Origin: Bacteroidales bacterium
GTDB taxonomy: Bacteria; Bacteroidota; Bacteroidia; Bacteroidales; VadinHA17
DNA: 64,000 bases
Direction of reading: 5' to 3'
Assembly: GCA_029932855.1 (NCBI GenBank)
Contig: JAOZPG010000011.1
Location: 29,854 to 93,853 of the forward strand
The notes under the pieces were generated by a model that was given only the letters and a program-made list of their open reading frames with translations, did not search any database and was not told the DNA's origin. Positions 24,838 through 34,547 of the stretch are shown one piece after another. Made by a program: the position numbers and the translations under genes. Position 1 is the stretch's first letter. Each line of letters opens with the position of its first letter.

Positions 24838-25552
24838 CTATTTTTCTTTTTTTCCTATTCCTGCCTTTATTGGGATCATTATGCCCAGCTGAAAAGTACG
24901 GTTAGAAGAGATTCTTTCTATTGAAGGATCATAAATATTTGCCAGTCCGTGAGCATAATTAAGTCTTATTTGTACTCCCGGATCTCCTTGCAAATGAAAA
25001 TTAAGACTGCCCACAAGGGCAAAATCCATCCTTCTGAAATTATCAATTATATCTGTTCTGGTGGCTATATCCCAGTTATCATATTCATGTTCAAAGCTAT
25101 CATCAGCCATAAACATCAGGCTGGCTTGAAATCCCAGGCCAAACCCCAGCCATGGAACCGGCCTGTACTGCAAAACCACAGGAAGATCAAAGTAACTTAA
25201 GCGACGGAAAGATTTCGCTCCGAAATAAATACTATCGGGTAAGGGAGTAAAATAATCATCAAAACCGAATTCCCGTACCCCCTTTGGGAGAATTGAATAA
25301 AAGAGAAGAGGCCAGAACGAGGTGATCAGACATCTTGAAATCGAAAAACAGTCCAATGGCCAGCCCCCTTCCAAACTTACTGCCTTCAATATTGCTCTGG
25401 GTAGTGAAATTCCCGCTTACATTAAGTCCGAATTCCAGTTTCTCATTATTCAGCTTATCACCAAATAAAAGGCTGATAAGTATTTGAGACTGTGCTGCGG
25501 ATACAGAAAAAACCAATAGTATGATTATAATTCCCAGCTTCTTAACAGGCAT
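24838..25552 (-). pseudogene. Porin-family outer-membrane beta-barrel gene split by a +1 frameshift
   Basis: ORF 25552-25259 carries the signal peptide and first strands. ORF 25389-24838 carries the rest of the barrel (..YFDLPVVLQYRP..GFGLGFQ..). The two frames switch at a G5 run (C5 on the plus strand, 25278-25282). Removing one base gives ..LLFNSPKGVREFGFDDYF.. and a 237-aa product. Confidence 0.6.
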
Positions 25553-25604: not shown

Positions 25605-27353
25605 TTAACGCAAGATCTTCCTTACGAAAGCCACTGTAAAATATGACATCATAAAAAGACCGGTAAAACCCTCAATACCAGACAAAACTCTTATAAAACC
25701 AGAAGGATAGTAATCTCCATAACCAATGGTAAGAAAAGTAATGGCACTATGATAAAAAGAAACAGCAAGTGGTCCCAGCTTATCCGGATCACCTATTGAA
25801 GAATATATACTGGATCCTGAAAACATCATCAGCACATAATAAAGCAGGGAGAAAACTGTATAGGCAACCAGCATGCTCAGTAAAACACGTAATGGAGCAG
25901 TTGCATATTTACCCATCTTTTCAAGTATAAGCCACTGGGAAGCATACTTTGGCCATACCCACAGCCTGTTCAATGAATTTTGTTTTACTGCCTCTTCAAC
26001 ATCTGCAATTGCTTCAGTCCTCTTAAACTCAACATAAGCCAGATCCTCATATTCATATTTACCTGTTATCATATAATTCTCTTTCAGGAGCCTGAATTGT
26101 TCGGATTTCTGCCTGATATTAGTTTCTTCCTGCCTGTTTATCAGATCTTTTACTTTGTTTCTTTTCCAGTCAATAAATATCTTGCCCAGCAACCTCATGC
26201 CTGTGAGATTTAATATATCCATCTTAATATCAAAATCGAATGGTTGCATGTCAATTATGTCACGGGCAATAGTATTGGACAGGTTAACATATTCACAGGA
26301 TGCCAGTCTTAAATCGAGATAATGATCCAGGTGACATGAACTTAAACACAGTCTTTTCAATCTTGAATTATAGAAACTGAGATTGCCACTACCAAAGTCT
26401 GAGTTCTCAAGCCTGAGTTCTGAATTATCAAATTCAAGGAGCTCAAAATTCTTGTTCCCCTCACCAAAACTCACCCTCTTCATTGAACATCTTCCCGAGC
26501 TTATCTGGCTTGCCTCAAAACTAATATCCCCCTTGCCAAAGACAGACCTGTTAAAGTTGATCCTTCCATCCCCAAACTCAACTGTCCTGAAGTCCACCCT
26601 GCTATCACCAAACTCTGTACGCTCAAAAGAGATATCGCCTTCACCAAATTTTGCAAAATGAAAATCCACCTTTCCCCCAAGAATACGAGCTATTTTAAAG
26701 CTTACCGGTCCATCTCCAAAATCTGCATTGATAAATGACAGTTCCCCAAAATTAAATTCAGTATTGGCAAATGAGCTTAATCCTTCACCAAAATCTGCAT
26801 ACTGAAAATCTTTCTTCCCATTGCCAAACACCGAATTCCGGAAGTTAACCTCCCCTTTTCCAAAACGCACATTTGAGAAATCAACATCACCTTCTCTGAA
26901 AAAAAGGCCCGAGAAATTCACATCTCCGTCTTCAAAGTGAGCAGAATTGAAGTTAACCCTTCCGTTAACAAACTGGCTGCCTTCAAAGCTGACCCCTCCT
27001 TTTTTAAAAAGAGCAAAAGAAAAATCAGTCTCCGTTTTACTGTCAAACACTGAATCACTGGATGAAAAACCATTAAGTATCACAGTAGATTTTTCCTCCA
27101 GCTTATAAAATTTACGATAATTGCCAAGTGAAAAATCAGATATATAGCAATGGTCAAGGACTAGCTCCTCTCCCCTGTTTATTGTTTTATAGATATCCTC
27201 AATATCCGGACAGCCCAGGGTTTCCTCCGAACTTGTTATGTCTTCATCATCAAGAAATGTAACAATGGCAGTCCTAGGATATAGTATCCCCCCTTCCGAA
27301 ACAAACTCCTTATTTATAATTTTAACTTTTAATTTCCTGTAGTATGAAATCAT
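25605..27353 (-). CDS. Two-TM K+ channel pore domain fused to an N-terminal 12-residue-repeat (beta-solenoid-like) domain
   Basis: C-terminal TM, pore helix and filter FLTIGYGDYYP (TIGYGD encoded at 25713-25730), then a second TM. Residues 111-338 are 19 gap-free repeats F-x-x-[AS]-x-F-G-x-G-x-[VI]-[SND]. Confidence 0.75.
   Translation of the reverse strand: MISYYRKLKVKIINKEFVSEGGILYPRTAIVTFLDDEDITSSEETLGCPDIEDIYKTINRGEELVLDHCYISDFSLGNYRKFYKLEEKSTVILNGFSSSDSVFDSKTETDFSFALFKKGGVSFEGSQFVNGRVNFNSAHFEDGDVNFSGLFFREGDVDFSNVRFGKGEVNFRNSVFGNGKKDFQYADFGEGLSSFANTEFNFGELSFINADFGDGPVSFKIARILGGKVDFHFAKFGEGDISFERTEFGDSRVDFRTVEFGDGRINFNRSVFGKGDISFEASQISSGRCSMKRVSFGEGNKNFELLEFDNSELRLENSDFGSGNLSFYNSRLKRLCLSSCHLDHYLDLRLASCEYVNLSNTIARDIIDMQPFDFDIKMDILNLTGMRLLGKIFIDWKRNKVKDLINRQEETNIRQKSEQFRLLKENYMITGKYEYEDLAYVEFKRTEAIADVEEAVKQNSLNRLWVWPKYASQWLILEKMGKYATAPLRVLLSMLVAYTVFSLLYYVLMMFSGSSIYSSIGDPDKLGPLAVSFYHSAITFLTIGYGDYYPSGFIRVLSGIEGFTGLFMMSYFTVAFVRKILR
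26340..27023 (-). repeat. 19 in-register 36-nt (12-codon) coding repeats inside the channel gene
   Basis: FSFALFKKGGVS / FEGSQFVNGRVN / FNSAHFEDGDVN / FSGLFFREGDVD / FSNVRFGKGEVN ... LENSDFGSGNLS / FYNSRLKRLCLS. There are no indels between units. Confidence 0.85.
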
Positions 27354-27375
27354 AAGGTAAATATATATAAAATGG

Positions 27376-30237
27376 CTAATCTATCTCCTCCCTGGAACAT
27401 ATTTTGTTATAGCTGCAATACTTGCAGATATCCCTGTCCGCTGCCTGGCTAAAAGGGATATCTGTATTATATATCTCTTCCATAAGTTTTTTAAGCTCAT
27501 CCACAAACTCATCCTGCAATGGTAAAAAGTCACCAAGCTTTTTCTTATCCATGCTTATGGCTGATGAAAATTCCCTTAAGTGCATATCCCGGATATTATA
27601 AATACCGGGTACAATTATCTCCTTATCTGCATCTGCCAAATACAACCAACAGTATAAAAAAGTCTGGAATATCTCTTTTTTTCTCTTGCTCTTGCCTCTC
27701 TCAAACAGTTCTGTTAGCAATACAAAATCTTTTCCGGCCGATCCGCTTTTATAATCAATGATCCTTGTCCTCCCATCCTGTATATCAATCCTGTCAACAA
27801 TACCTTTTAGGCCCGCTCTCCCTCCATTAAAGTCTATACTCCGCTCAAATAAAGTTTCAAGCCCTTTTATCTGCAATGGAGCAATCAGGGCATCATGCTT
27901 TAAGATATTTTGTATATAGCTTATTATTACTTCCTTTATTATAATGTTAGTCTTATCTTCCTGTTTCTTGCGTACCCCTTTTTCTTTCAGCCATATACGC
28001 CGAAAAGAATCATCCAATAAACTTCTTATCCTTGCCTTGTCCTTCATAAAAGCCTTAATATCATCAGCACTCAGCAGTTTGCCTGAACCGATATAAGCTT
28101 TGTAAATATTATTGAGTACATCATGTATAATATTTCCAAAAAGAATGGGATCTATCTCCTCGCTGATCTCATCCGTCTCTCCTATCCCTGCAACATACCT
28201 GAAATAAAACTTCAGTGAACAATCCATATAAGAGTTCAGTGCGGAAGGTGAAAAACGCCTGTCTCCTCCCTCAAGGTATTTCTTAAGCACAGCCATTTCG
28301 GTCTTTCCCTTCTGAACAACAATACTCCTGGCCTCCATCCTTGCAGGGGAATACACCAGGTTCCTCTCTGTAAGCTTAATATCTGAAAGGTATTTTAACT
28401 GATAGATAAAACGGCTCTTCTCCCCCGTTTTAAATCCATCATCAGCAGTAGAATATATTAAAGTAACATTCTTTGCTCTTTGTATCAACCTGTAAAAATA
28501 ATATGCATAGATACGGTCGCGGTACTCTGTTGTAGGCAGGCCAAATCCTTTCCTGAGCTTATATGGAATAACAGAATTCCCTGCTGAACTGCCCGGGAAT
28601 GAACCCTCATTCATAGAAAGTATCAACAAGTTATTAAAATCCAGTGCCCTTGCTTCAAGTATCCCCATTATCTGCAGTCCCTTCAATGGCTCACCGGAAA
28701 AGGGCACACTTATATGTCTTATTATCTTTTTAAGAAGCTTCCTGAAAATAGTGGGTCCGATATAAATTTTTTCCTCTTTTACCAGGTCCGATAACCTGCC
28801 TGAAGCAATATAAACCTGAAAAATATACTCTGCCTGCAATTCAAATCCTCCCCCTTCCCTGTTAAGCATCACAATCTTATGCAGTATGGCCCTCAGGTAA
28901 TCTGACAGGGCCTCTGCTCCTTCAGCCCTGGTAAATATCATGCTGCTCAGTTCATCCCTTATGAGGAATGAAGCCATGGGAAAAATCAGGTTACGTCTCA
29001 GCATCTCCTTCCTTATATTCATCATCTCCTCCCCTCCGCATGCCAGTATATACTGGTGACCCAGTATTTTTAGTACATCTTTATTATAAAACAACAATTC
29101 TCCGTCTTTGCCCGATTCCTTCAATCCCTGCTGCAGATCTATAAGGCTTTCAACCAGGCCATAAACGGGTGTATTCTTCAGAGGGAGTCCCATAGTAATA
29201 TTTATGTCCTCATATTCGCCGGGTACGGAATTCATAACAACAGACAAAATATCTTCATCCGGAAGGACAACAGCAGTGTCACTTCCCTTACTTATCCCTG
29301 CCTGCTTCCATTGTTCCAGTTTCATTCCCATAATCTTTGCCTGTGCCGTGCGCCCGGGGGCAGAAATCACCTCAATAGTCTTTTTAGCTGTAAAACGGCA
29401 GGCAGGGTGTTCAGTCCTGAGGTCAGGAAATAATCTCAGGTTCTCCCGTATAAAAAAACCGGCCTCATGCTGCCTGTCATCTATGTATGAACTGTCATAA
29501 TCCCAGTAAAAACCAGCCCTGCCCGATCCGTACAACTTTGACAGTATCCTTTTCTCACTTATTGTCAAAGCATTGAAACCGATAAAATAGGCCATCCTGA
29601 ACCCCGGTTCTGTATCTTCCTCCATACGCTCACAGGCTTTCCTGTATGCCAGTCCCTCATAAACCGAACCCGACTTGTCGAGCATCTTCCTGAACCTGCT
29701 GTAAAGCTTGTGCATAATGCCCCATATCTCTCTGAACTCATTCTTCTCATCAGATTCCCTGGATATTTGAAAACTATCCCAGAAAGATCGTATAAGCTCT
29801 ATCTGTTCCGGTTCCAGGTAACTAAAATCATCATCTATGGCTTTCATCGATTCAAGGTTCCTGAACAGATCTGCAGCATCTACCATATTCTTGTCAACAT
29901 CACCAAAATCATTCAGCAAGACTTCCCCGAATAACATAAATTCATCAAAGCTTTCCGGGTTCTCAGCCTCCTGGCAATATATCCTGTAGAGGCTAAATAT
30001 CAACTGCAGGGGATCTGCAGGCCGGTATCCCGACAGCTTCATCATCATCTCACTGACAGTTATTGAATGAGGTGCCCATACAGGTTTATCTATTAAGGAA
30101 GACAGCTGTTTCATAAAAAACAGCTTTGCCCTGTGCCCGGGAAAGACAAGCCAGCATTCCGGTAGGCGGTCCTTCTCCCTGGAATATATGTCACGGGCAA
30201 CATCTTCAAGAAAGCTATATGTACTGCCTGGATTCAT
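27376..30237 (-). CDS. AddB-like PD-(D/E)XK nuclease family protein (inactivated-helicase scaffold + Fe-S staple nuclease)
   Basis: 953 aa. The C-terminal nuclease region has Cys in SYMDCSLKFYF plus CKYCSYNKIC (C..CxxCx5C), the iron-staple pattern of AddB/Cas4-type nucleases, and IIDYKSG. It is paired with a UvrD-type helicase-nuclease 1 kb upstream. Confidence 0.7.
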   Translation of the reverse strand: MNPGSTYSFLEDVARDIYSREKDRLPECWLVFPGHRAKLFFMKQLSSLIDKPVWAPHSITVSEMMMKLSGYRPADPLQLIFSLYRIYCQEAENPESFDEFMLFGEVLLNDFGDVDKNMVDAADLFRNLESMKAIDDDFSYLEPEQIELIRSFWDSFQISRESDEKNEFREIWGIMHKLYSRFRKMLDKSGSVYEGLAYRKACERMEEDTEPGFRMAYFIGFNALTISEKRILSKLYGSGRAGFYWDYDSSYIDDRQHEAGFFIRENLRLFPDLRTEHPACRFTAKKTIEVISAPGRTAQAKIMGMKLEQWKQAGISKGSDTAVVLPDEDILSVVMNSVPGEYEDINITMGLPLKNTPVYGLVESLIDLQQGLKESGKDGELLFYNKDVLKILGHQYILACGGEEMMNIRKEMLRRNLIFPMASFLIRDELSSMIFTRAEGAEALSDYLRAILHKIVMLNREGGGFELQAEYIFQVYIASGRLSDLVKEEKIYIGPTIFRKLLKKIIRHISVPFSGEPLKGLQIMGILEARALDFNNLLILSMNEGSFPGSSAGNSVIPYKLRKGFGLPTTEYRDRIYAYYFYRLIQRAKNVTLIYSTADDGFKTGEKSRFIYQLKYLSDIKLTERNLVYSPARMEARSIVVQKGKTEMAVLKKYLEGGDRRFSPSALNSYMDCSLKFYFRYVAGIGETDEISEEIDPILFGNIIHDVLNNIYKAYIGSGKLLSADDIKAFMKDKARIRSLLDDSFRRIWLKEKGVRKKQEDKTNIIIKEVIISYIQNILKHDALIAPLQIKGLETLFERSIDFNGGRAGLKGIVDRIDIQDGRTRIIDYKSGSAGKDFVLLTELFERGKSKRKKEIFQTFLYCWLYLADADKEIIVPGIYNIRDMHLREFSSAISMDKKKLGDFLPLQDEFVDELKKLMEEIYNTDIPFSQAADRDICKYCSYNKICSREEID

Positions 30238-30293: not shown

Positions 30294-31265
30294 TTATTTT
30301 TTCCCCTCAATGTATTTTTTTCCCTGCCAGCTATTCCTCTCTTCAAGCCTTTTCTCAAACAATTCAAGAACATTGTCGCTGCGTTTCAGGTCCCACCTCG
30401 GACCGGCAATAAATTTCGGAGGAGCCTCCCCACTCACCCTTTCTACAATAAATGCCGGGTTCAGCCTCTCTATAAAATCAATAATAAATTCCCTGTATTC
30501 TTCCCATTCAAACAACTCAAAACTACCTGGGTTTTCTTTATATTGCTTAGCCATTTCAGTTCCCTTAATTATCTGAAGCTGGTGAAACTTTACATTGTTA
30601 AGAGGCAAAGCCGATAATATCTCTGCTTCCTTAAGCATATCATCCCTCGACTCTCCGGGAAGTCCGAAGATCAGATGTCCACCGGTTCTTATACCCCGGG
30701 CTGCCGTAGCCTCTATGGCCCAAAGACTCTTCTCAAAGCTGTGCTGCCTGTTTATAAGTTCAAGAGTATTGTTATAGCACGATTCAATCCCGTATTCAAT
30801 GATCAGGTAGGCTTTCTCAGACAGCTCTCTGAAATAATCAAGTTTCTCCTCATCCACACAATCGGGCCTTGTCCCTATTACCAGCCCGATGATGCCGGGT
30901 AATTCCAGGGCTTCATTATATAGTTTTTTCAGATGATCAAGCGGGGCATAGGTATTGGAATACGCCTGGAAATATGCAAGATACTTTTTTGCCTTGCGGT
31001 ATCTCTTCCGGTGAAATTCCATTCCCAGTTCAAGCTGCTCCTTTATTCCTTTCTGAGCTGTACAATAAGAAGGATTGAAAGCATCATTGTTACAATAGCT
31101 ACAACCGCCATATGCAAGGCTACCATCCCTGTTGGGACATGTGAAGCCGGCATCCACCGAAAGTTTCTGCACTCTCTCACCAAATAAAGACCTGAAATAA
31201 TTAGAGTAAGCATTGAACCTTCGCTCATGTCCCCATGGAAATCTATGTTTGCCTGATTTATTCAT
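30294..31265 (-). CDS. TIGR01212-family radical SAM protein (E. coli YhcC-like)
   Basis: GFTCPNRDGSLAYGGCSYCNN, KYLAYFQAYSNTY, IGTRPDC and LIFGLPGE. Co-linear with my recollection of E. coli YhcC. Confidence 0.85.
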   Translation of the reverse strand: MNKSGKHRFPWGHERRFNAYSNYFRSLFGERVQKLSVDAGFTCPNRDGSLAYGGCSYCNNDAFNPSYCTAQKGIKEQLELGMEFHRKRYRKAKKYLAYFQAYSNTYAPLDHLKKLYNEALELPGIIGLVIGTRPDCVDEEKLDYFRELSEKAYLIIEYGIESCYNNTLELINRQHSFEKSLWAIEATAARGIRTGGHLIFGLPGESRDDMLKEAEILSALPLNNVKFHQLQIIKGTEMAKQYKENPGSFELFEWEEYREFIIDFIERLNPAFIVERVSGEAPPKFIAGPRWDLKRSDNVLELFEKRLEERNSWQGKKYIEGKK

Positions 31266-31301: not shown

Positions 31302-34300
31302 TCATAAAGCTTCAAGCTCTCCAAGCATTGCATACCATATATATGCTTCAACATTTCTATAGCCCATCTGCTCAAGCAGCTTTTTATAATTCATCAGCTG
31401 CTTCCTGTATCCCTCCTTCTTGAGTTCCCCGAATTTATAATCTATCACTATGGCCTTATTTCCCGATATCATAACCCTGTCCGGCCGTCTCATATCTCCC
31501 CCCGGTAAAAGTATCTCCGCCTCCGTTTTTATTTCTTCCATACTACCGTCAAACCAGGCCGAAACCGCAGGATGCCCTGTCAGTTCTTTAACAAGTTCCC
31601 TGTAATGATCCCTCTCCCGTAGTGCAATACGTCCGGAAGATGCAATGCTATCTATTGCCACATCTATATCTCTCATACTAACAATATCCTCAAACAGCCT
31701 GTGCAATATCCTGCCCTGATCAAGCTTTTCCAGCTTTTCATCGCTAAACAGCTCCTCTGTTTTCTGCTTCAGCCTTAAGCCCGGCCTTGCCGGCCAGCTC
31801 TGATATTTATCTATATTAAATGAAATGTCACCCGGCCTTTCTGTATAGCTGTGATCATCCAGGCTTCCAAGCTCCCAATAATCTTTTTCTTCATTCCAGT
31901 GCCCGGAAAACTGCACAAAAGGTTTATCTCCATTCCCGGGCAGACTTTGCTCACTAAGTAAACTCCTTTTAATAAGTCCCGCTACGCTTGTGAGTTTTTT
32001 TTCTTCCTTTCCATATATCCATAAACCTTTCTCCGAGCGGGTAAGTGCAACATACAAAAGGTTAATATTATCTATAAGTACATCCAGCTTCTCTTTAAGG
32101 TAATCTGCCTCAAACAGGGAATTCTTCAGTGTAGAGGAGTAAACAACCGGTAATAAGGGGATGTCTCTGAATGGCTTTTCTTCTGATTGGCACCAGATAA
32201 CAGGCCTGTGCGAGTTATCAATCTTCCATGATGCGAAAGGAATGAAAAGATAAGGAAACTCCAGACCCTTGGCCTTATGCACTGTTAATACCCTGAGTGC
32301 ATATTTGTCATCACCAGGTTTTAGCGAGCTCTTATACCCATCTTTCTCCCACCAGTCCAGGAATGAACTCAGGTCTCCTGAATCATCATTTGAATATTTC
32401 AGGATAATATCCATAAAGGCCTGTATATAGGCAATGTCTCTTCCATCTTTACCAATAGAGTAAAGCCTTATTATTCCTTCAGCCATTTCTGCAAGTGAAG
32501 CCATTTTTAGCTTTTGCAGTTCTTCATTAATAGCTGCATCTGACAGCAGTTTGCCTGCAAGCGCCTCAAAATCGCCGGGAAAGCCCATAATCCCCACAGA
32601 ACCTGATACCAGGTCCTCATGCTCTATATACAATCCTGCAAGATGAACTTTGTCTTCGCTGTTAAGGAAATATGAAAAGAAGCTAAGCAAAAACCTTACT
32701 GCAGGCGAATTCTGAAGATACAAACTATCATTAGACACAATGGTAAAAGAAGAATATGCACTGCCAGGCATACCCTCCCTGAACTTCATAAGTGCCTCCA
32801 CTGCCAGCCTGCTGTCTTTCCTGTCTCTTACAAGCACTGCTATTTCTCCCGGAAGCACCCCCCTCTCCAGCAAGTGTCCTATTTCGCCGGTAAACCTGCT
32901 GGCAGATTCATCCTTCCATTCCTTACCCTCAATAAAGCTAATACTCACATATCCTTCTTCAACAGCTGCCTGTTTTGATGATTCCTGGGCTTGCCCATGG
33001 TAAAGATCAATTATCCTTCCCTGCATAATTTCGGCCTCGTCCCTGTCAAAAAGACTACTGTTAAAATCAGCATTAAAATGCTTCTGCAAAACTTCAGGGG
33101 CTTTCATGAAAAGAGAATTATTGAAAGCAACTATATTCCTGCAGCTTCTAAAATTAAGCTCAAGACTCTCGGTTTCAGCCTTAAGTCCTGCCATGATCTT
33201 CCAGTCACTGTTCCTCCACCTGTAAACAGACTGTTTTATGTCACCCACCACCAGATTGCTGTATCCCTGTGCTATACTATTTTCAATAAGAGGCCTGAAG
33301 TTGGCCCATTGTATCACTGATGTATCCTGGAACTCATCCAACAGGAAATGATTGAAAAATGATCCTGTCTTCTCATATATAAAAGGAGCATCATTATTAG
33401 CTATTATCTTCCACAGGAATGTGGAAGCCTCGGATATTAAAAAGCTGTTCCTCTCTTTAGAATACTCTCTTATCTTAGCAACCAGATCGTAAAAAACACC
33501 CAGTGAATAAACCTGTTTTATTAATAAGCGGGCGGTGTAATAAGACCGGAAATTCTGTTCGGCATAGAGAGATATCTCCTGCAGCAGGGGTCTGAGACTA
33601 TCCCTTATTAAAGGCAGCTTACTAATGGCATATTCCGAGGATTTGGGAAACCACATATTCTCATCTTCAACAGCTGCCCTTACATATGAGTTTAATTCAT
33701 AGGCCTTTCCACTTGCTATTTTTTCAAAAAAACCCCCTACACCTTTTCCTTTTTGTCTGAAATCATCTGCTTCAAGGGAGTTTAGCTCTAATATATCAAG
33801 GCCTCTGTGACCCATCTCCTGCATGTTGCTTTGGAATTTATCTATCAAGCCGTTCATACCTTCCTTAAAACTTCCCAGCATAGTTCTCTCACTCAGTGAA
33901 GAACTAAGCTTATCCCATTGAGCCTTTACCTTCTCTGTAAAGTACTCCTGGCCCATATCAAGAAGGTTCTTACGAAAGTTCCATGAATTGCCTTCAGCTA
34001 TCTTCATTCGGGCAAAGCTTATAAGCCACTTTCCAAGCTCCGGCGAATCATCAGCCTCCCGTAAAAGTGAATCTATAGATTCCTCCAGCACTCTTTCATG
34101 ATCAAGTTCTACCGAATAATTATAGGGCAGGCCCAGTTCCCTTATGAAACTCCTTATTACCTTCTGAAAGAAACTGTCTATTGTCTGAACTGCAAATCCG
34201 GAGTACTGGTGGAGTATGGTTTTGAGGGCTCTTCCAGCCATCTCCCTCACCTTACTGGCTGTTAATCCTGATTTTTCAACAAGGTAAGCGGTATAATGAA

Positions 34301-34547
34301 TCTCATCCTCACTGCTGCTTATCTCATGTAACTTCAGCAATATCCTGGCCTTCATCTCGTCTGCAGCCTTATTGGTAAAGGTAACTGCAAGAATATGCCT
34401 GAACTGCTCAGGATCTTTTATTATCAGCAGGACATAGTCCCTTGCAAGCCTGAATGTTTTTCCAGAACCGGCCGATGCCCTGTATAATTTTAGTTCTCCC
34501 AAATCATTCCTTTCCGTATGCACCAAATTTCTTTTCCAGGGCATCAA
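31302..34547 (-). CDS. AddA-like UvrD/REP superfamily-1 helicase with C-terminal PD-(D/E)XK nuclease
   Basis: Walker A YRASAGSGKTFRL, DEFQDTS (motif II), VGDIKQSVYRWR, TVHKAKGLEF and a C-terminal RPDRVMI...VIDYKFG nuclease motif. The ATG at 34547 overlaps murF by 44 nt. An in-frame TTG just after the murF stop (giving ..GELKLYRASAGSGKT) is an alternative start. Confidence 0.75.
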   Translation of the reverse strand: MMPWKRNLVHTERNDLGELKLYRASAGSGKTFRLARDYVLLIIKDPEQFRHILAVTFTNKAADEMKARILLKLHEISSSEDEIHYTAYLVEKSGLTASKVREMAGRALKTILHQYSGFAVQTIDSFFQKVIRSFIRELGLPYNYSVELDHERVLEESIDSLLREADDSPELGKWLISFARMKIAEGNSWNFRKNLLDMGQEYFTEKVKAQWDKLSSSLSERTMLGSFKEGMNGLIDKFQSNMQEMGHRGLDILELNSLEADDFRQKGKGVGGFFEKIASGKAYELNSYVRAAVEDENMWFPKSSEYAISKLPLIRDSLRPLLQEISLYAEQNFRSYYTARLLIKQVYSLGVFYDLVAKIREYSKERNSFLISEASTFLWKIIANNDAPFIYEKTGSFFNHFLLDEFQDTSVIQWANFRPLIENSIAQGYSNLVVGDIKQSVYRWRNSDWKIMAGLKAETESLELNFRSCRNIVAFNNSLFMKAPEVLQKHFNADFNSSLFDRDEAEIMQGRIIDLYHGQAQESSKQAAVEEGYVSISFIEGKEWKDESASRFTGEIGHLLERGVLPGEIAVLVRDRKDSRLAVEALMKFREGMPGSAYSSFTIVSNDSLYLQNSPAVRFLLSFFSYFLNSEDKVHLAGLYIEHEDLVSGSVGIMGFPGDFEALAGKLLSDAAINEELQKLKMASLAEMAEGIIRLYSIGKDGRDIAYIQAFMDIILKYSNDDSGDLSSFLDWWEKDGYKSSLKPGDDKYALRVLTVHKAKGLEFPYLFIPFASWKIDNSHRPVIWCQSEEKPFRDIPLLPVVYSSTLKNSLFEADYLKEKLDVLIDNINLLYVALTRSEKGLWIYGKEEKKLTSVAGLIKRSLLSEQSLPGNGDKPFVQFSGHWNEEKDYWELGSLDDHSYTERPGDISFNIDKYQSWPARPGLRLKQKTEELFSDEKLEKLDQGRILHRLFEDIVSMRDIDVAIDSIASSGRIALRERDHYRELVKELTGHPAVSAWFDGSMEEIKTEAEILLPGGDMRRPDRVMISGNKAIVIDYKFGELKKEGYRKQLMNYKKLLEQMGYRNVEAYIWYAMLGELEAL

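Follow-up and report, generated by a model that had tools for sequence, protein, structure and literature searches.

In a 64,000-nucleotide stretch of a Bacteroidales bacterium genome (GenBank assembly GCA_029932855.1, contig JAOZPG010000011.1, positions 29,854 to 93,853 of the forward strand; hereafter the window), we find a gene whose 582-amino-acid product joins a strictly phased array of 12-residue repeats to the pore of a potassium channel with two transmembrane helices (2-TM). We read the product as a K+-selective 2-TM channel, probably a tetramer, in which a rigid N-terminal beta-solenoid and the helical linker behind it would form the regulatory module, a reading that we think probable, if by no means secure. 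Bacterial K+ channels have long served as models of gating, and the cytoplasmic sensors known from them are RCK, cyclic nucleotide (cNMP)-binding, Kir-type and voltage-sensor domains. Here, in a large and conserved family, the only candidate sensor is the solenoid. If it gates the pore, both the coupling mechanism and this use of the pentapeptide-repeat fold would be new, and the channel is compact, confidently predicted and experimentally tractable.

The array consists of 19 units in a single register, V-[SDN]-F-x-x-[AST]-x-F-G-x-G-x, with zero insertions or deletions (indels). The identity autocorrelation of residues 109-338 equals 0.33 at lags of 12, 24 and 36 residues, against 0.086 +/- 0.018 over 5000 shuffles (z = 12-13; 0/5000 reach the observed value); lags of 5, 7 and 10 are not significant, with z = 2.1, 1.7 and 1.0, respectively. 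With a position-specific scoring matrix (PSSM) derived from the family, 18 strong units are located over residues 109-324, spaced by exactly 12 in every case. An earlier note, made by a model from the DNA alone, had described 19 consecutive 12-residue repeats without an indel and a period of 12, not 5. Its register (residues 111-338) is offset by 2 from the one used here (109-336), and both statements are borne out, the final 2-3 units being degenerate. The units have a mean pairwise identity of 31%, and no 36-nucleotide tandem repeat is present in the DNA of the array; from this we conclude that the array is old and has seen no recent expansion.

The same note had expected automated pipelines to label these repeats 'pentapeptide repeat', as indeed they would: Pentapeptide_3 (PF13576) does match, at 29.0 bits for the whole protein (cut-off 27) and at 37.9 bits when only the repeat region is scanned. 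This match is marginal and is made of fragments with insertions, and the canonical Pentapeptide model (PF00805) matches neither the channel nor an idealised array of the 12-mer. A perfect idealised 12-mer array needs insertions to reach 52.6 bits on PF13576; a perfect idealised 5-mer array of the Phe type reaches 91 bits on PF13576 and 163 bits on PF00805. According to these scores, the Pfam pentapeptide models are 5-periodic and the 12-residue variant lacks a model of its own. A canonical pentapeptide repeat is ruled out for the array by the non-significant lag 5 together with the missing PF00805 match. The claim that the array is not a pentapeptide repeat therefore stands as far as the period is concerned; it does not extend to unrelatedness, since one 12-mer resolves into a pair of units of the pentapeptide kind, x-V-[SDN]-F-x and x-[AST]-x-F-G, with G-x inserted as two further residues (5+7), and coils of 5-residue spacing lie on both sides of the array (residues 61-108 and about 325-365). 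In the family profile, Phe stands at position 3 in 91%, with V, I or L at position 1, and at position 8 in 74%, with A, S or T at position 6. At the level of sequence, the repeats thus carry the core feature of pentapeptide-repeat proteins (PRPs), that is, a central hydrophobic residue i with a small residue at i-2. Most likely, the pentapeptide-repeat fold is the evolutionary and structural relative of the 12-residue array, and the array is a derivative of the PRP fold.

AlphaFold2 (AF2) models of the full-length protein (40-sequence alignment; predicted local distance difference test (pLDDT) 90.5, predicted TM-score (pTM) 0.77) and of residues 1-400 (32 sequences; pLDDT 95.0, pTM 0.90) contain an ordered beta-solenoid, unbroken to about residue 395, between an alpha/beta N-terminal domain and three long helices. 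In both models, the strands assigned by DSSP alternate between long and short with a period of 24 over residues 193-316. The core-type positions of each 12-mer are two Phe, a Val and an Ala, Ser or Thr, and there is no Cys ladder. Alternation and core composition together indicate a coil made of two repeats, with about 10 coils in the rod, and the modelled coil is most likely 24 rather than 12 residues long. The earlier note, which had proposed an ordered beta-solenoid with a 12- or 24-residue coil and had compared the periodicity with that of antifreeze proteins, was right about the solenoid as modelled (pLDDT about 95) and probably about the longer coil; core composition and a DSSP period of 24 make an antifreeze-like 12-residue coil unlikely, and we reject it.

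When the solenoid was searched alone with Foldseek, nothing appeared at E <= 1e-3. The best matches were the PRPs 6fls, EfsQnr (2w7z) and AlbG (2xt2), with E of 2-3e-3 and TM-scores of 0.16-0.23, and generic right-handed beta-helices ranked after them; across the solenoid-alone and full-length searches, TM-scores against PRPs of the Qnr/AlbG type were 0.16-0.29. A profile of residues 1-400 found no sequence relative in the PDB (a single match, E 0.77). The solenoid is, as modelled, confidently predicted and without a close solved counterpart, and the statement that no well-characterised family claims the repeat region agrees with the Pfam, NCBIfam and PDB profile searches. At -9 net over 240 amino acids, the solenoid is only mildly acidic, which leaves DNA mimicry via charge unsupported.

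The remainder of the protein is a channel. Residues 506-580 match Ion_trans_2 (PF07885; 37.2 bits, cut-off 22.5; E 2.7e-9), and PDB profile matches include the pores of Kir7.1, Kv2.1 and KcsA. By profile and filter, the protein is a member of the 2-TM K+ channel superfamily; it is a putative homotetramer with K+-selective conduction. The helical linker followed by a 2-TM pore with a TIGYGD filter, as drawn in the earlier note, is seen in the AF2 helices as well as in the Ion_trans_2 match. Ion_trans_2 and Pentapeptide_3 are the only Pfam matches at E <= 1 to the 582 residues, and the NCBIfam scan returned nothing. Within the scope of these two scans, RCK/TrkA, cNMP and voltage-sensor (S1-S4) domains are absent from the channel, the first two as already stated in that note, and the protein ends directly after the second transmembrane helix (TM2), without any C-terminal tail. 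Residues 1-60 match no Pfam or NCBIfam family. A TenA match to the linker (E 0.003) was judged to be a chance low-complexity helical similarity. The sequence lacks a signal peptide and the cytoplasmic ends of TM1 and TM2 are flanked by K/R; the N-terminal ~400 amino acids are probably a cytoplasmic solenoid half.

Among the orthologues, segment conservation is highest in the pore helix and filter (0.82), TM2 (0.81) and the C-terminal solenoid cap (0.73). These values bear on the idea that the pore module does not conduct and is only a tetramerising membrane anchor for the solenoid. Some distant family members do have degenerate filters, as such an anchor would lead one to expect, but in the orthologues the strongest conservation of the whole protein, up to invariance, is found in TIGYGD, the pore helix and TM2, which points to selection on conduction, and we regard the idea as very improbable. 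In the linker, the invariant residues include E418, Q419, K424, N426, G431, Y433, E436, D437, Y440, F443 and R445. Within the array, the surface positions 4 and 5 (0.77 and 0.70) are conserved above the core positions 1 and 6 (0.57 and 0.58), position 10 is free to vary (0.36), and repeats 7-14 are the best conserved (0.70-0.81). The invariant or near-invariant residues K172, N173, Q184, N197, K220, H232, E244, R256, N268, R269 and E280 all occupy positions 4-5; with 24-residue coils they would make two ladders on opposite edges of the rod. Such conservation is in keeping with a surface for binding or for contact between subunits more than with a simple spacer, and it is this pattern that leads us to propose the solenoid and linker as the regulatory module.

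A hypothesis regarding the mechanism of gating may be put forward: the three-helix linker would couple the solenoid to TM1, beside the inner gate formed by TM2, and a putative ligand or partner protein from the cytoplasm would dock on the conserved polar ladders (positions 4-5 in repeats 6-15). Alternatively, the trigger might be a rearrangement of the four solenoids against one another. Either change would be relayed via the linker so that the pore opens or closes, in the way that the N-terminal crown and linker gate HalA, a channel to which we return below. That the solenoid is 'directly gating' the pore, in the words of the earlier note, is something we infer. A transferable sensor domain would be in keeping with paralogues that have about 7 more repeats and with the occurrence of the solenoid on a different membrane module.

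Several points weigh against this hypothesis. The AF2 models are monomers, with the tetramer and the arrangement of solenoid and gate outside their scope; the evidence for the 24-residue coil consists of core-residue counts and the DSSP alternation; no ligand-binding motif was recognised in the channel by Pfam or NCBIfam; and the conserved surface could equally be the inter-subunit packing of a static scaffold. Solenoids of pentapeptide repeats (the Rfr fold) are, as a rule, stiff rods that lack catalytic sites, and the solenoid here might likewise be a passive scaffold or docking platform, which keeps other proteins at the membrane or holds the channel at a distance from structures in the cytoplasm, with the pore gated otherwise, by voltage, pH, lipids or K+. 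A near-invariant repeat number would suit such a molecular ruler, and the missing ligand-binding motif speaks on the same side. However, the conserved helical linker between solenoid and TM1 suggests mechanical coupling, and the protein offers no other candidate sensor, having no voltage-sensor, RCK or cNMP domain and ending after TM2. We consider a purely passive solenoid rather unlikely, yet the most serious competitor of a regulatory one.

A survey of homologues and their repeat numbers, which the earlier note had named as a check, places the channel in a large family. A word-indexed search gave 1426 matches among 8000 candidates scored; the top 120 relatives share 50-74% identity, are nearly all 580-582 amino acids long, come from metagenome-assembled genomes (MAGs) of Bacteroidota or 'Chlorobi', and bear only the database names 'potassium channel family protein' or 'two pore domain potassium channel family protein'. 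An exhaustive search of 50%-identity representatives returned 2567 clusters at E <= 1e-3, of which 241 reach E <= 1e-30. A relative is present in at least 555 species-representative genomes, the best 80 of them being all MAGs and almost all with Bacteroidota-type labels. The architecture, called unusual in the earlier note, does have no RCK or cNMP domain; it is not rare, being that of a large Bacteroidota family under generic channel names. Database pipelines already carry the combination of Pentapeptide_3 and Ion_trans_2 in part, and our literature searches returned no description of the channel family, the 12-residue repeat or PF13576.

The repeat number is nearly fixed among orthologues, where the 252-residue segment around the array (residues 97-348) has equal length in 38/40; in distant representatives the period of 12 is kept and the number varies, from 0 to 31 PSSM units with a median of 13. 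A paralogous subfamily of 650-672 amino acids has about 7 extra repeats. At two loci, the ~670-amino-acid channel lies about 40 nucleotides downstream of a 506-508-amino-acid DUF6272+SiaC fusion (L088 6435-10013 and L089 6438-10016), in a neighbourhood with many genes of partner-switching signalling (SpoIIE phosphatases, SiaC, DUF6272), a setting that hints that a protein partner may regulate this subfamily. Three related channels (P0250, P0251 and P0269) have a repeat period of 11/22/33 in place of 12/24/36, and the size of the solenoid coil therefore appears to depend on the subfamily; the Pentapeptide_3 score of P0251 is 112.6 bits. A second 582-amino-acid open reading frame (ORF), in the homologous locus L007, is unrelated to the channel.

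In some relatives, the 12-residue solenoid sits on an unrelated C-terminal membrane module without a K+ filter, ending in ...FLFLIGLGLRNRFRL. Nine representatives are of this kind (P0176, P0208, P0213, P0237, P0238, P0244, P0245, P0248 and P0258) and share the end motif ...[IL]FLFL[IV]GLGLRNRFR[LIM]; the module has no Pfam family. Their Pentapeptide_3 scores go up to 139 bits (P0176), P0208 has no Pfam match, and four were outside the scan. Found on a second membrane module, the solenoid behaves as a transferable module. Separately, distant members with the pore show altered filters, namely TIGYGN, TIGYGG, TIGYGT, TIGYGH, LIGYDA, IIGYED, TMSYN and TIGYEN (P0153, P0166, P0174, P0178, P0179, P0182, P0189, P0193, P0195, P0205, P0215 and P0232); TIGYGE is a further filter seen among distant members. 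To judge by these motifs, some paralogues may differ in ion selectivity or may have ceased to conduct.

The full-length AF2 model was also compared with the PDB, and its best fold match was HalA (9nyi_A; E 1.4e-4, probability 1.0, 345 columns), with a TMt of only 0.43 and a root-mean-square deviation of 9.7. Other K+ channel structures rank below it and align over ~155-205 columns of the pore only. HalA is the ion-channel effector of the Hailong anti-phage system and is gated by a cytoplasmic crown (Tan et al. 2025, as summarised in PMC13434031); the crown binds an oligodeoxyadenylate made by HalB, a phage exonuclease that removes this DNA opens the channel, and HalA is reported to admit Na+ (PMC13434031). 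With the solenoid as the only Foldseek query, HalA is missing from the 50 best matches, so that, by elimination, the likeness appears to sit in the linker and pore. In sequence, 9nyi is absent from the results of the phmmer search with the channel, of the linker-region query and of the residues 1-400 profile, as well as from the 60/235 listed matches of the A1 profile; an idealised ADLSG/ANLSG pentapeptide array matches 36 PDB sequences, 9nyi not among them. No HalB-type nucleotidyltransferase is encoded near the channel or in 7 homologous neighbourhoods, and PADLOC gives no hit at the channel locus. We reject membership in the HalA family, given the lack of sequence similarity in these searches, of a HalB gene and of a PADLOC hit, and the loss of the fold match without linker and pore. 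The likeness is best understood as a mechanistic analogy, in which an N-terminal cytoplasmic domain would gate a 2-TM pore via a helical linker. As a structural link, it suggests that N-terminal regulation may extend to a wider class of 2-TM channels.

Table 1 Coordinates in the window of the channel gene, its parts and the neighbouring genes of the conserved block.
Feature	Position	Strand	Evidence
Solenoid-K+ channel gene	25605..27353	(-)	582 aa; ORF and translation; homologues 580-582 aa, 50-74% identity
Residues 1-60, small N-terminal alpha/beta domain	27174..27353	(-)	AF2 DSSP E7-13, E28-34, E40-47, H51-59; pLDDT ~90
Residues 61-108, N-terminal cap coils, 5-residue-type spacing (LVLDHCYISDFSLGNYR...)	27030..27173	(-)	sequence; ordered in AF2
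Residues 109-336, 19 x 12-residue repeats	26346..27029	(-)	autocorrelation, PSSM, AF2 pLDDT 94-98
Residues 337-400, C-terminal solenoid cap, Leu-centred 5-residue-type coils (LSSCHLDHYLDLRLASCEYVNLSN...)	26154..26345	(-)	AF2 strands E352-357, E366-368, E378-382, E391-393
Residues 401-486, helical linker from solenoid to TM1	25896..26153	(-)	AF2 helices H413-430, H433-458, H460-484
Residues 487-582, 2-TM pore	25608..25895	(-)	AF2: TM1 487-511, pore helix 528-542, TM2 553-581
TIGYGD selectivity filter, residues 542-547	25713..25730	(-)	invariant, 40/40 orthologues
AddB-like PD-(D/E)XK nuclease gene	27376..30237	(-)	Pfam PDDEXK_1; sub-threshold NCBIfam AddB
mnmL/ytqA radical SAM tRNA-modification gene	30294..31265	(-)	TIGR01212, 310.9 bits vs cut-off 180
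AddA/RecB-like helicase-nuclease gene	31302..34547	(-)	Pfam UvrD-helicase, UvrD_C, PDDEXK_1; NCBIfam RecB-like/AddA sub-cut-off

The channel gene follows a block of genes for two helicase-nuclease subunits and a tRNA-modification enzyme (Table 1), the stop codon of the AddB-like gene lying 22 nucleotides upstream of the channel ATG. Farther upstream, past the addA-like gene, are murF and alr; downstream of the channel are a split porin gene and trmD. Neighbours were counted on the best 80 species-representative loci. An AddB-like gene stands directly upstream of the channel on the same strand in 55/74 informative loci, with gaps of 25-371 nucleotides (median ~70), and within 0.6-4.3 kb of it in 5 further loci; the AddB proteins of these loci are 31-57% identical to the AddB-like protein of the window, ~35% in most. 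By comparison, trmD is adjacent downstream in only 12/76 loci. The linkage of channel and addB is real and better kept than the flanks.

Together with the HalA match, this linkage raises the question of a HalA-like guard. In such an arrangement, addA, mnmL, addB and the channel would be a functional unit, and the channel, held closed by a nucleic-acid or AddAB-dependent signal, would monitor AddAB or the DNA that it produces; once phage factors or DNA damage disturb these, it would open and collapse the membrane potential. HalA being the best structural match and AddB adjoining the channel in so many loci despite ~35% identity, with trmD kept next to it in few, are in keeping with a guard. On the other hand, mnmL, which is unrelated to DNA repair, lies inside the block, so gene order need not reflect function; murF and alr upstream are core housekeeping genes, with no defence island and no PADLOC hit; neither a HalB-type nucleotidyltransferase nearby nor sequence similarity to HalA was found in the searches above; the orthologues are uniform in sequence and length, unlike fast-evolving, patchy defence genes; the ~670-amino-acid paralogues are not beside AddB; and the canonical K+ filter contrasts with the Na+ inflow reported for HalA (PMC13434031). 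In our opinion, a guard function is improbable. The broader proposition that 12-residue-repeat solenoids are transferable cytoplasmic sensors on at least two membrane effector modules, when taken jointly with an AddAB guard, would be equally doubtful.

Further features of the locus were recorded. The order addA-like, mnmL/ytqA, addB-like is kept across diverged Bacteroidales MAGs, with the tRNA-modification gene between the two helicase-nuclease subunits. The porin gene, coding for an OMP_b-brl_2 barrel, is apparently split by a frameshift into overlapping ORFs on the (-) strand, 24838..25389 and 25259..25552 (window 24838-25552); an intact OMP_b-brl_2 gene of ~243 amino acids occurs in the same neighbourhood at the homologous loci L002 and L005. 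Neither the addB-channel gap nor the DNA following the channel showed an intrinsic terminator-like site in a scan for sigma-70/E. coli-type signals, which is uninformative for Bacteroidota. Window positions 25605-28400 are present in full in one hydrothermal-vent metagenome DNA run (share of sampled words 1.00) and in part in three more runs of the same study; the matching sequencing runs were DNA runs only, and no RNA run was found.

In comparison with known systems, the channel shares with HalA an N-terminal cytoplasmic domain, regulatory in HalA and putatively so here, followed by a helical linker and a C-terminal channel domain, tetrameric in HalA. It differs in being 582 rather than 333 amino acids long, in having a canonical K+ filter where Na+ inflow is reported, and in residing in the core genome rather than in a defence island. 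With the beta-helix of Tenebrio molitor-type antifreeze proteins, the likeness is numerical only, namely the period of 12; the repeats here have no periodic Cys ladder or T-x-T, and two Phe per unit cannot fit a 12-residue coil. PRPs of the Rfr fold (MfpA, Qnr, EfsQnr, AlbG, Np275/276; PF00805, PF13576, PF13599) have in common with the array the tandem units with a central Phe or Leu and a small residue two before it. Their period is 5 instead of 12 (5+7), their coil has 20 residues where 24 are inferred here, and they are free-standing DNA mimics, whereas our solenoid is fused to a channel. Combinations of a pentapeptide-type solenoid with a membrane-transport protein or with a channel-tetramerisation fold are known from SV2A (MFS transporter-like, with luminal pentapeptide repeats), a weak match in the structure search with the full-length model, and from KCTD9 (BTB/T1 plus pentapeptide repeats), respectively; both are eukaryotic and have canonical 5-residue repeats, and neither is a fusion to a K+ pore. 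Finally, 2-TM channels of the KcsA/KirBac/MthK type possess the same module of M1, pore helix, TxGYGD and M2, and the distinction of the present channel lies in its putative regulatory domain, which is an N-terminal beta-solenoid rather than a C-terminal RCK, Kir-type immunoglobulin-like or cNMP domain.

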